64,000 nt of DNA, taken from the sequence record OR339795. The stretch is one strand, 5' to 3'. The DNA is from Escherichia phage phi456. Positions 30,551 through 33,501 of this stretch are shown here, piece after piece. Positions within the stretch are counted from its first letter, which is position 1. Each line of letters starts with the position of its first letter. Under the pieces are notes generated by a model. It saw nothing but the letters and a program-made list of their open reading frames with translations. It had not been told where the DNA came from and made no database searches. A program made the translations under genes and the position numbers.

Positions 30551-30827
30551 GGCTGAAGGGCAGAAAAAAGGTTATCCGGACATGAGTCTCGATAAAGCAT
30601 GCGGTATTTATCACGGCATGCGAATTGAGCTTAAAGAACCAAATGGTAAAGCCCCGACGAAAGAGCAGATCGCCTGGATGCGCAGGCTTAGAGAGGAAGG
30701 TTACTACGTCGTTCTTGCGTATGGTGCAGAACAAGCGATAACCGCCATCCTGGAATACATAAGCCTTAAAAAGGGTGAGGCTATTGAGCATGTATTGAAC
30801 GGCGATAAGTGGTTGTATGCTGCTTAA
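30551..30827 (+). CDS. VRR-NUC-like PD-(D/E)xK nuclease domain protein, 5' end interrupted by IS1
   Basis: GYPD...IELK...KEQIAWMRRLREEGYYVVLAYGAEQAI pattern; native start ATG at 29769 separated from the body by IS1 copy 3. Confidence 0.5.
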
Positions 30828-30893
30828 AATAATAAATTAATTAGTGCATATGTGCTCTTTGATATAGCGCACATTAACATCGGGAGAATAATC

Positions 30894-31049
30894 GTGTCAT
30901 TCAAGGCTAATTATGAATCGCTGGCATCGATCATGCCGCGTAATGAACAGGAAGCAGATGCTGTAGTGGACCCGGTAATCGCTGAAATGAATGCTCGCCT
31001 GGAGGCTGAATTTGCAGCTGAGAATGAACATACCACCCAGGGCGACTAG
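30894..31049 (+). CDS. small acidic hypothetical protein
   Basis: About 51 codons from GTG at 30894 after GGGAGA; weak support. Confidence 0.25.
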   Translation: MSFKANYESLASIMPRNEQEADAVVDPVIAEMNARLEAEFAAENEHTTQGD

Positions 31050-31653
31050 GACTGTTTTTTGTGTCGGTAGCGGTCCGTCACTCACTCGTGAGGACTGTGC
31101 TGCTATAGAAAAAACTGGCTGTTCAATCATCGCGGTTAACAATTCCTGGCAGATGTTCGATGACATTTATGCCTTATACGCCGGTGATTTGTCATGGTGG
31201 AAGCAATACGGATCCACCATACCGGGAGGGAGATTCCGCAAAGTGACAGCCAACCTGGCGGCGGCGAAATCATTTTCGTTGGAGTACAGGCGATATTGTG
31301 GACCGGCGGAAGGGGTAAATAGCGGCGCGCAGGCTATCAGTCTGGCTGCTGAATCAGGGGCTGAAGTAGTGGTATTAGTCGGCTATGACTGTTCTCTGCA
31401 AAACGGCCTTCATTGGCATGGCGCGCACCCTCAAGCCCTACGGAATCCAACGCAGGTGTCTATTTCAAAATGGCAACAGCAGTTCCTGGATACCCGCAAA
31501 AAACACGCAGATTTACATATTTTGAATGCAAGTAGGAGCAGTGCAATTCAATGTTTCCCAAGAATAAATTTAGAGGCAGTGATCGCGTTATTATCGTCGG
31601 CAGTGGCCCAAGCGCCGCAAACTTTGTTGCGCCGCGCGGAGTGCCGATTATAG
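31024..31653 (+). CDS. Rossmann-like GSGPS-motif protein, paralog A (DUF115/MptE-like suspected)
   Basis: CVGSGPSL...IIAVNNSW...YAGDLSWW...GVNSGAQAISLAAESGAEVVVLVGYD; shares motif order with the next ORF. Confidence 0.45.
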   Translation: MNIPPRATRTVFCVGSGPSLTREDCAAIEKTGCSIIAVNNSWQMFDDIYALYAGDLSWWKQYGSTIPGGRFRKVTANLAAAKSFSLEYRRYCGPAEGVNSGAQAISLAAESGAEVVVLVGYDCSLQNGLHWHGAHPQALRNPTQVSISKWQQQFLDTRKKHADLHILNASRSSAIQCFPRINLEAVIALLSSAVAQAPQTLLRRAECRL

Positions 31654-32177
31654 CGGTCAATGGGGCCATCGACTGGCTGAACCGCGCTTCTTATTTTTTC
31701 ACACTTGATCCATCGCCAGACAATATGCGGCGCGTTGGTCGTGGCCGCCGTCGCCGTGGTGTTTGTTATTGCATGGCACTACCCGATGTTAAAGAACGTG
31801 AAGTCAGAGACGGCGTTCTGTGCTTCCGTCGTGTGGCTGAACGTGGCATGGAGCCAAAAAATACGAATTCTCCCGAGTGGTGGGCGTGGCGCTGGTCCGC
31901 ACATTTCGGACTTTGCGAAGATGAGAATGAAATTGCCAGCGGCAATAGTGCATATGGCGCTCTGAACCTGGCTTTCCATATCGGATTCAAACATGTCGCC
32001 CTGGTGGGCGTTGACGCTACACAAGAACCACGCGTTCACTCCGGCGGCACGCCAAAAAATCTAAGTCACCTGCCTTTGTTATTCCAGTCTGCGCGTGAAC
32101 GGATTGACGTTGTTTCATGCGGGAAAATGGGAGGTATTCCGCAGATGACTCTTAAAGAATGGCTGAAGAATACATGA
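31551..32177 (+). CDS. Rossmann-like GSGPS-motif protein, paralog B
   Basis: IIVGSGPSA...[10 protein letters not shown]...[26 protein letters not shown]; overlaps paralog A by about 100 bp in another frame. Confidence 0.45.
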
Positions 32178-32851
32178 TGGCACCAACAATTTATCACCGT
32201 ATCGACGGTACCAAATACAGGAATATCTGGGTTGTTGGTGATCTGCATGGTTGCTACACCAGACTGATGTCCGAACTCCATCGTGTGGATTTTGACCCGG
32301 CGCAGGATTTACTGATATCGGTCGGCGACCTTATCGATCGCGGTACTGAAAATGTCGAATGTCTGGAACTATTGCAGATGCCCTGGTTCAGGGCAGTAAT
32401 GGGGAACCATGAGCGGTTGATGCTCGATGCGTTAAGTCCTGATGGCAACGTGAATAACTGGCTAATGAATGGCGGACAATGGTTCTTCATGCTGGACACT
32501 GATCAGGAAATATTAGCCAGGGCGCTGGTGGAGTTGGTAAGACGACTGCCCTATATCATTGAGTTGAACACCGGGCAAGAAACTATCGTTATAGCCCATG
32601 CCGACTATCCGGATAATGAATATCAATTCGGTAAGGAGGTGCCGCTTTTCAACGTTGTCTGGGCGCGCGAGCGTATCAGTGATTCGATGGATGATATTGG
32701 TGGCGAAATTTCGGGCGCAGATCGTTTTATCTTTGGTCACACTCCGGTGAAAAGCCCGAAGACATTCTGGAATCAGCATTATATCGACACTGGTGCCGTA
32801 TTTTGCGGAAACCTGACATTGATGAAAGTGAAAGGTGATGGTGCAGCATGA
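32159..32851 (+). CDS. ppp: serine/threonine protein phosphatase (lambda PPase/PrpA-like metallophosphoesterase)
   Basis: GDLHGC, GDLIDRG and GNHE metallophosphatase motifs; P1 carries a ppp gene, as recalled. Confidence 0.8.
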
Positions 32852-33501
32852 AGATTGCTTTAGTTCTTCGCTCTGGTGGCGACTATAACGCTTCCGATGT
32901 GCAGTGGCTGGTTAATCAACTGCCAAAAGGCTATGAAATTATTTGCCTGACAGACCTGAAGCGTTTACATGTACCTGGCGTCAAAGTTATCCCATTGATC
33001 AACCAGTGGCAAAAGTGCCGTGGCTGGTGGGCGAAAATCGAGTTGTTCCGACCGGATATAACCGATGATCTGTTCTATCTGGATTTGGACACGGTTATTG
33101 CCGGTGATATACGCCCAATCCTTGAGAATCCACCAACCAGCTTCACCATGCTTAGGGATTTTTACCATCCACAATATCGTGGTAGCGGTGCCCTGCGGAT
33201 ACCAAATAGTGTAAAAGCGCATATCTGGAGTTCATTCTGGCAAGATCCGGAAGGTTGGATTTCTCGTTGTGTCACTACTGAGTGCTGGGGTGATCAGGGG
33301 TTCTTACGGAAGGTTATGGGCGATGATACACCAGCATTTCAGGATCTGTATCCAGGATGGTTTGTAAGTTACAAGGCCGATGTTGTGGAACCTGGTTCAA
33401 AATATGCGAGCGCGCGTTACTCCAGGGGGAATGGGGCATTACCAAAGGACTGCCGAATAATTTTTTTCCACGGCAAACCGCGACCTCGCGAAGTGTCATA
33501 G
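32848..33501 (+). CDS. hypothetical protein with DxD-like motif (glycosyltransferase-like suspected)
   Basis: 217 aa; start overlaps the ppp stop (ATGA); [12 protein letters not shown] motif. Confidence 0.35.

Follow-up and report, generated by a model that had tools for sequence, protein, structure and literature searches.

The Maf flagellin glycosyltransferases and the GT42 sialyltransferases, enzymes that use cytidine monophosphate (CMP)-activated ulosonic acids, and the retaining glycosyltransferases of family GT8 are the closest described relatives of the products of three genes of bacteriophage P1, pmgO, pmgP, and pmgQ. The three genes are listed as 'putative morphogenetic' and have been unexplained since the genome paper of 2004. 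They recur in Escherichia phage phi456 (sequence record OR339795), of which a stretch of 64,000 nucleotides, referred to below as the window, was analysed. We put the probability at roughly 0.55 that pmgO, pmgP, and pmgQ form a glycosylation cassette whose acceptor is probably a virion protein, that the neighbouring genes ppp and pmgM are independent of it, and that the block found here is a decaying P1 segment. This reading would add a testable function for the three genes, a fusion-linked set met beside capsid and tail genes in many phages of Proteobacteria, and, if the target is indeed the virion, would extend phage virion glycosylation to Gram-negative hosts, with a bearing on immunogenicity, stability, and adsorption. 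As a sequence feature the block is ordinary, already known as annotated P1 backbone.

Window positions 30551-35881 align without gaps to P1 79152-84482, with 94 mismatches in 5331 nt (98.2% identity, local BLAST). In megablast comparisons, positions 30551-33600 are 98.2% identical to P1 and 97.7-98.6% identical to P7, RCS47, SJ46, and others, and coverage of this query reaches at least 80% in at least 541 plasmid records. The genes stand in P1 order, namely the 3' part of pmgM, pmgN, pmgO, pmgP, ppp, pmgQ, pmgR, pmgS, and pap, and the portion that matches the P1 pmgM-pmgQ operon is collinear with P1 79152-82150. RefSeq product labels already read VRR-NUC, alpha-2,3-sialyltransferase, metallophosphoesterase, and glycosyltransferase. 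The block from the pmgM remnant to pmgQ is best regarded as known, annotated P1 backbone within a defective P1-derived plasmid ridden with insertion sequences (ISs), and not as cargo. A first-pass annotation of the window had allowed that the block might prove to be invariant P1 backbone with characterised functions; backbone it is, and the literature gives it no function. The listing of open reading frames (ORFs) bears out the co-directional, overlapping arrangement described there, with plus-strand ORFs at 30537-30827, 30852-31049, 30991-31653, 31551-32177, 32159-32851, and 32848-33501, but the count of five genes overlooked a sixth, pmgN. Overlaps amount to 103 nt for pmgO/pmgP, 19 nt for pmgP/ppp, and 4 nt for ppp/pmgQ. 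The genes downstream of the pmgM remnant are as follows.

30894-31049, plus strand: pmgN, 51 codons in the P1 annotation, matching PHROG 2350 at E 3e-45
30991-31653, plus strand: pmgO, Maf / GT42-sialyltransferase / MptE-fold, putative ulosonic-acid-type glycosyltransferase, protein identical to that of P1
31551-32177, plus strand: pmgP, distant pmgO paralog with the shared motif skeleton GSGPS, AVNG, GNSA, VGVD, SHLP
32159-32851, plus strand: ppp, lambda-type Mn-dependent Ser/Thr (PPP-family) phosphatase
32848-33501, plus strand: pmgQ, compact GT8-like, putative retaining GT-A glycosyltransferase, with DxD at D79/D81 and GDQ at 148-150

PmgO, PmgP, and PmgQ and the genes that travel with them

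The first-pass annotation had singled out two tandem paralogs by their GSGPS, IAVN, and LVG(Y/V)D motifs, and this pairing holds up well. The motifs are conserved columns in the PmgO and PmgP family alignments alike, and comparison of the two family profiles with hhalign gives a probability of 97.8% and E 8e-13 over 162 columns, with the natural O-P fusion protein P0051 removed. A value of E 3e-53 obtained with P0051 inside the PmgO alignment was rejected as an artefact of that fusion, and the comparison was repeated without it. Pairwise BLASTP is marginal (14/36 identities). Judged by these profiles, PmgO and PmgP are true distant paralogs in which the motifs have been kept. The PmgP family is large, comprising 577 clusters at 50% identity (E <=1e-3) among 1.84 billion representatives.

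The resemblance to DUF115/MptE-like enzymes suggested in the first-pass annotation is likewise real, though it lies below the gathering score of the Pfam MptE-like family PF01973 (PmgO 23.4 bits, E 5.7e-5; PmgP 21.0 bits, E 3.2e-4; cut-off 34.6 bits); some homologs do carry a precomputed PF01973 match. At the level of predicted three-dimensional structure, the proteins share the fold of the MptE-like / Maf / GT42 superfamily. The PmgO profile aligns with the CstII motifs GNGPSL...CN and TSG...LSGID, though not significantly, and the PmgP profile found no match among PDB sequences. An invariant His follows the G-x-D motif in both proteins (H141/H143 in PmgO, H173 in PmgP), at a spacing that differs from that of CstII H188, which we take to be the catalytic His of that enzyme.

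Automated annotations start PmgO 54 codons and PmgP 30 codons later than the P1 annotation does (pHFQ1 locus L003, 12603-13103 and 13091-13627; proteins P0003 and P0174). Proteins begun there would lack the conserved GSGPS and IAVN motifs, and these start calls are therefore probably wrong. The product name 'norphogenetic protein' on PmgO and PmgP homologs is an apparent propagated typo; the P1 GenBank note to pmgM reads 'putative norphogenetic function'.

In PmgQ, the LDLD motif flagged in the first-pass annotation is the invariant DxD (D79, D81) of the family alignment, but the length of 217 aa given there reflects a truncation. The gene has 233 codons in P1 and in pHFQ1, the closest plasmid (99.9% identical), and would reach 33549 if intact; here a G to T change at 33499 (GAA to TAA) creates the premature stop E218*. 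A second change, W117R (window 33196), accompanies it, and neither occurs in P1 or pHFQ1, which points to recent decay of a defective element. Substitutions relative to P1 (synonymous, non-synonymous) number 1,0 in pmgO, 10,2 in pmgP, 5,4 in ppp, and 7,6 in pmgQ. Set against PDB chains of GT8 enzymes, the PmgQ family profile matches the Skp1 alpha-galactosyltransferase at E 7e-9 and GlyE and glycogenin at about 5e-5, with DxD and GDQ aligned, as in a GT-A fold of the GT8 type. Only the family profile reaches GT8 chains; curated Pfam Glyco_transf_8 does not recognise PmgQ, and a Pfam search with PmgQ returned no family at E up to 1.

The three genes travel together. In tblastn searches of phage genomes, PmgP and PmgQ always co-occur and PmgO is more widespread, and the following arrangements were found.

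Cronobacter P1-like phage JK004: pmgL-M-N-O-P-Q-R-S-pap without ppp, P and Q lying 44 nt apart
Lambdoid Citrobacter phage phiNP: uninterrupted O-P-Q without ppp, flanked by the lysis genes and by terS
E. coli phage IME392: O-P-x-Q, x being a GT1-family gene where P1 has ppp
Xanthomonas jumbo phage Xoo-sp13: O-P-x-Q, x being a TylF-like methyltransferase where P1 has ppp and forming one fusion with Q, adjoining a tail host-specificity gene
Phage D6: ppp in a group of nin-like genes, P and Q without a match genome-wide

Natural fusions join O to P (P0051), P to Q (P0299, P0364), Q to P (P0379), and Q to P and a methyltransferase (P0348), and the variable extra genes of the cassette encode sugar enzymes, namely a GT1-family protein, TylF / Methyltransf_24 methyltransferases, and a Nucleotid_trans protein. 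The VRR-NUC gene that pmgM represents stands beside the trio only in P1-like phages. Because O-P-Q recurs without ppp in distant phages and D6 has ppp alone, gene distribution argues that O-P-Q is the conserved unit and that ppp and pmgM are separable, independent neighbours, and the phosphatase should not be interpreted jointly with the transferases. Of the module of sugar transfer plus dephosphorylation envisaged in the first-pass annotation, the sugar-transfer part fits PmgO, PmgP, and PmgQ, whereas synteny separates ppp and pmgM from it. The O-P fusions also lend indirect support to the idea of an O/P heterodimer. A search of viral contigs with the PmgO alignment recovered only near-identical P1-like contigs, and a search of genome contigs with a narrower alignment sampled only the subfamily without P and Q.

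The genomic setting of the cassette in relatives is structural. In HK97-like prophages it lies directly 3' of the major capsid gene, in CcrColossus it follows a large tail protein and is accompanied by further glycosyltransferases, and in P1 a late promoter precedes the operon, which runs divergently from the baseplate and tail genes. Glycosyltransferase genes in or next to structural genes, as in phage virion glycosylation systems, are thus found in the relatives and in P1; in the window itself the adjacent tail genes are deleted. The statement in the first-pass annotation that the block is not concerned with virion assembly finds no support in its original form, since the cassette adjoins capsid and tail genes in unrelated phages, as the following examples illustrate.

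Pseudomonas prophage (L016): capsid-[O][P][Q]-connector
Onishia (L017): capsid-[O][Q]-connector
Martelella (L013): capsid-[O][x][Q][methyltransferase]-head completion
Phage D3: capsid-[O]-connector

A sister cassette combines a PmgO-like protein with a GT9-like protein of about 290 aa (GLGDSIYQR motif, weak GT9 matches) and Methyltransf_23. The methyltransferase is present in 13 of the 30 genome loci sampled, and a natural fusion joins the PmgO-like and the approximately 290-aa GT9-like protein (L116, 6983-8479). This cassette occupies the late regions of many prophages.

Phage D3 (L009): 5855-9143
PAJU2 (L010): 5781-7724
Eowyn (L130): 3998-6083
Further loci: L099-L120

The PmgO homolog ORF010 of PAJU2 is annotated 'structural protein'; a search for primary evidence behind the label found none. 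A PmgO-like gene outside phages stands in Lonsdalea quercina (L123, 1919-8865) beside a gene for an inverse-autotransporter (invasin-like) adhesin of 1160 aa and a GT9-like gene, an arrangement that gives a hint of protein glycosylation and is, by analogy, reminiscent of adhesin heptosylation systems.

Proposed function and competing explanations

In the mechanism we favour, PmgO and PmgP would be paralogous enzymes, PmgO having the predicted fold of the Maf flagellin glycosyltransferase and GT42, and PmgQ would be a small retaining hexosyltransferase with a uridine diphosphate (UDP)-sugar donor and a metal held by DxD. The three would cooperate, probably within one complex, in assembling a short glycan out of the nucleotide sugars of the host. 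The donor that we propose for PmgO and PmgP is CMP-3-deoxy-D-manno-octulosonic acid (CMP-Kdo), because E. coli K-12 is not known to make any other CMP-sugar; UDP-Glc/Gal are available beside it. A 2023 preprint describes a phage glycosyltransferase apparently using Kdo in E. coli. The acceptor would be a macromolecule made during lytic growth, most likely a virion protein because the cassette adjoins capsid and tail genes in unrelated phages. It is enticing to speculate further that O-P-Q of P1 is the prototype of a widespread cassette, hitherto unrecognised, with which phages of Gram-negative bacteria decorate capsid or tail with a short acidic glycan drawn from lipopolysaccharide (LPS)-core donors (CMP-Kdo and UDP-hexose, with adenosine diphosphate (ADP)-heptose in the sister cassette), a counterpart of mycobacteriophage virion glycosylation; this wider generalisation is tentative and more doubtful than the proposal for P1 itself.

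Several observations weigh against a virion-directed glycosylation cassette. GT8, GT9, and WaaZ are typical LPS-core enzyme families, which makes LPS a plausible alternative acceptor, and the fold of PmgO and PmgP is common to pyrophosphokinases too. Besides the sub-threshold PF01973 scores and the empty Pfam search with PmgQ, NCBIfam holds no model for PmgO, PmgP, or PmgQ, and PADLOC and NCBIfam scans returned nothing for PmgM, PmgN, PmgO, PmgP, or PmgQ. The P1 operon also possesses an early promoter under C1 control, which a function directed purely at the virion would not usually have; a late-operon neighbourhood can equally reflect sites of moron insertion; and no obvious Ser/Thr-rich C-terminal extensions were seen on the capsid proteins adjoining the cassette. 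The paper on the P1 virion proteome makes no mention of glycosylation, the literature searched reports no glycan on P1 or related virions, and literature searches on what pmgO/P/Q do, on capsid-borne Kdo, on phage WaaZ, and on glycosylated virions of phages with Gram-negative hosts yielded only essentiality data and no function. Deletions and CRISPR interference (CRISPRi) knock-downs of pmgO, pmgP, ppp, and pmgQ produced no plaque defect, and the deletions no antirestriction defect.

The main rival holds that, during lytic growth, O-P-Q remodels the host surface by attaching Kdo and hexose to the LPS core, which serves P1 as receptor, and so stops progeny or superinfecting phage from adsorbing to infected cells and debris. 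E. coli WaaZ, a core enzyme associated with KdoIII, itself matches Pfam MptE-like at E 7e-7 and shares SGP / IAVNG / G.D, the O-P fusion P0051 has a faint precomputed WaaZ_KDO_III match, and GT9 heptosyltransferase-like genes populate the related cassettes; the early C1-controlled promoter before pmgN in P1 points the same way, as do the predicted isoelectric points (pI) of PmgO and PmgP (9.3 and 9.7), which are basic like WaaZ. Yet PmgQ is acidic (pI 5.6) and, at 217-233 aa, far shorter than WaaJ/WaaO (338-339 aa), and hhalign relates WaaZ to the PmgO and PmgP profiles only weakly (probability 11-13%, E about 2e-3). Close homology to WaaZ was accordingly rejected, and the two proteins, though of a common superfamily, are not called WaaZ homologs. 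The placement of the genes also counts against surface remodelling: in most phages they lie in late operons next to capsid or tail genes, which is unusual for surface-conversion genes and would give newly made LPS little time to arrive at the surface. In P1, C1 represses the unit, which is hence no agent of lysogenic conversion. We regard LPS remodelling as unlikely, although it has a better claim than the three alternatives that follow.

That PmgO and PmgP are instead MptE/TPK-like pyrophosphokinases, performing nucleotide-dependent phosphoryl transfer to a small molecule or polymer and possibly working with the Ppp phosphatase, comes near the nucleotide transfer plus dephosphorylation envisaged in the first-pass annotation. 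It is suggested by MptE-like being their sole Pfam match and by the position of ppp between pmgP and pmgQ in P1. A kinase role is nevertheless improbable: a GT8-like glycosyltransferase and sugar methyltransferases constantly accompany the two proteins and occur fused to them, and neither JK004, phiNP, IME392, and Xoo-sp13 nor the prophages examined have ppp in the cassette. Still harder to sustain is a single co-evolved host-takeover module of all five genes. Its appeal lies in their co-directional, overlapping order and common C1-controlled promoter in P1; the trio, ppp, and pmgM nevertheless differ in phyletic distribution and separate freely, single knock-outs show no plaque or antirestriction phenotype, and no defence or anti-defence family is matched, the PADLOC and NCBIfam scans having come up empty, so that the host takeover proposed in the first-pass annotation finds no support. 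Least probable of all is that the cassette glycosylates phage DNA as an anti-restriction hypermodification: P1 DNA is not known to be hypermodified, such pathways need a 5-methylpyrimidine dioxygenase beside the glycosyltransferase and none stands beside the cassette in the loci examined, and pmg knock-outs leave antirestriction unchanged. The glycosylation cassette with a probable virion acceptor is the reading we retain.

Ppp, the pmgM remnant, and the rest of the window

The first-pass call of a lambda-type phosphatase is amply confirmed, with Ppp aligning end to end with lambda phosphatase (PDB 1G5B, E 1e-94), GDLHG, GDLIDRG, and GNHE included. These are the GDxHG, GDxxDRG, and GNHE motifs of the PPP family, and the protein scores above threshold against Pfam Metallophos (59.9 bits, cut-off 21.5, E 6e-16) and falls with PrpA/PrpB-like proteins in NCBIfam. 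Its distribution marks ppp as an accessory gene that has entered the cassette, between pmgP and pmgQ, in the P1/P7 lineage.

At the upstream end of the block, and at the start of the next unit, the following features were read.

29737-29782, plus strand: internal fragment of pmgM, 46 nt, about codons 89-104, 100% match to P1 from 79115
29783-30550, plus strand: IS1 (768 bp), terminal repeats and 9-bp duplication read, insA/insB ORFs
29774-29782 and 30551-30559: IS1 target-site duplication GGCTGAAGG (9 bp), read from the sequence
30551-30827, plus strand: 3' part of pmgM, last ~92 codons, VRR-NUC / PD-(D/E)xK core GYPD...IELK
30795-30800 and 30816-30821: predicted promoter PpmgN, -35 TTGAAC and -10 TATGCT, positions taken over from the P1 annotation, each base then checked
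30834-30850, minus strand: C1 operator Oppp, 16/17 bases as in P1
33551-33567 and 33600-33616: C1 operators OpmgRa and OpmgRb, identical to P1, at the start of the pmgR-pmgS-pap unit

P1 pmgM (78850-79428) has 192 codons, and the IS1 site falls at about codon 101-104; the codon 4-5 first reported came from an ORF whose TTG start lies within the end of IS1. Upstream of the 46-nt fragment lie IS debris and a second, inverted IS1, with no P1 sequence. The plasmid pHFQ1 has the same 5' truncation of pmgM and is contiguous across the site without this IS1, so the insertion is later than the truncation. The pmgM of the window is a pseudogene, its native start and promoter having been lost. The VRR-NUC-like family call nonetheless survives: the remnant scores 21.3 bits against Pfam VRR_NUC, below the cut-off of 23.8, over profile positions 59-115 of 116, covers positions 101-192 of 192 of PHROG 2363, and matches PHROG 5702, 'Holliday junction resolvase', at E 1e-27. 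What is left, 5'-truncated and split by IS1, is not a complete domain in an intact gene. The two inverted IS1 copies (28498-29265 and 29783-30550) flank 517 bp (29266-29782) of IS30-like and IS3-like debris together with the 46-nt pmgM fragment.

The P1 annotation places a late promoter, LPpmgL, before pmgL, and the operator Oppp with the predicted PpmgN before pmgN. Oppp and PpmgN are retained in the window, but the P1 sequence below 79115 (LPpmgL, pmgL, and pmgM codons 1-88) is gone, so that the regulatory set of the P1 operon (LPpmgL, pmgL, full pmgM, Oppp) is no longer intact. A simple sigma-70 scan called no consensus promoter, PpmgN included. Because c1 is present in the window and Oppp is nearly intact, any residual pmg expression here would be C1-repressed. 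The pmgN ORF extends upstream as far as the GTG codon at 30852, the gene overlaps pmgO at the latter's annotated start, and its product differs from that of P1 by 4 amino acids; pmgN was essential by CRISPRi and dispensable by deletion (PMC10695390), and the former result may be a polar effect. With its late promoter and the pmgM 5' end lost, IS1 inserted, and a premature stop in pmgQ, the glycosyltransferase unit is decaying in the window.

Further downstream, Pap (pap, 35186-35692), which differs from P1 at 9 amino acids, matches PF25109 (E 1e-11), the HAD phosphatase domain found in polynucleotide kinase-phosphatase, and pHFQ1 annotates the gene as a 3'-phosphatase. Because of this match and label, the name 'acid phosphatase' may be a misnomer.

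The window as a whole (1-64000) is a defective P1-derived plasmid from which P1 genes 5, 6, 24, 7, 25, 26, and pmgL are absent and in which c1, cre, res, mod, and darB are present. The interval between doc and c1, in which lpa and pacAB would be expected, measures only about 1.8 kb and contains an IS1 variant (44644-45411). In place of P1 pmgT to humD stands a type I hsd locus (35957-43191, with hsdR at 35957-39073, hsdS, and hsdM at 41629-43191), whose junctions are those noted in the P1 annotation as similar to EcoDXXI/R124 plasmids; relative to pHFQ1, hsdS contains an extra ~1.2 kb (40219-41413) with a DDE_Tnp_1 transposase, probably IS5. Non-P1 cargo bounded by IS1 copies occupies 17186-29736.

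17563-18438, 18363-19268, and 21961-23130: IS3-family transposases in the cargo
20555-21355: AraC-type regulator in the cargo
24503-28000, minus strand: autotransporter of 1165 aa in the cargo (Autotransporter, AC_1, PATR, VirG insertion domain)
19832-20014 (183-bp fragment), 23534-24298, 28498-29265, 29783-30550, and 44644-45411: IS1 set, four full copies, one only 92% identical

Comparison with known systems

The nearest known system is the P1 region itself (AF234172 / NC_005856, 78850-82150), which the window matches in gene order, in 98.2% ungapped identity, in the C1 operators Oppp and OpmgRa/b, and in an identical PmgO, and from which it differs in having lost the 5' 88 codons of pmgM, pmgL, and LPpmgL and in having gained the IS1 in the remnant and the two PmgQ changes, E218 to stop and W117R. 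Ppp resembles lambda NinI (1G5B) and E. coli PrpA/PrpB in its full-length alignment and motifs; unlike the gene of the lambda nin region, ppp sits inside a glycosyltransferase cassette, whereas the D6 homolog does sit among nin-like genes. Compared with the GT8 enzymes glycogenin, Gat1, GlyE, and LgtC, PmgQ is smaller (233 aa) and is matched by no Pfam or NCBIfam model, and the metal-binding His column of GT8 is not conserved in it, a nearly invariant His lying two residues downstream.

PmgO and PmgP, at about 200 aa, cover no more than the central domain of the Maf flagellin glycosyltransferase chain, which has 632 residues (PDB 5MU5), and their sequence identity with Maf and GT42 (CstI/CstII) is 15-16%. 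As E. coli K-12 makes no CMP-nonulosonic acid, their donor would be CMP-Kdo or another compound, unlike that of Maf and GT42. The phage-encoded glycosyltransferases described for mycobacteriophage virions (Freeman et al. 2023, cited in PMC12894461) and A64R of chlorovirus PBCV-1 belong to other enzyme families, and the cassette considered here is one of phages of Gram-negative hosts.

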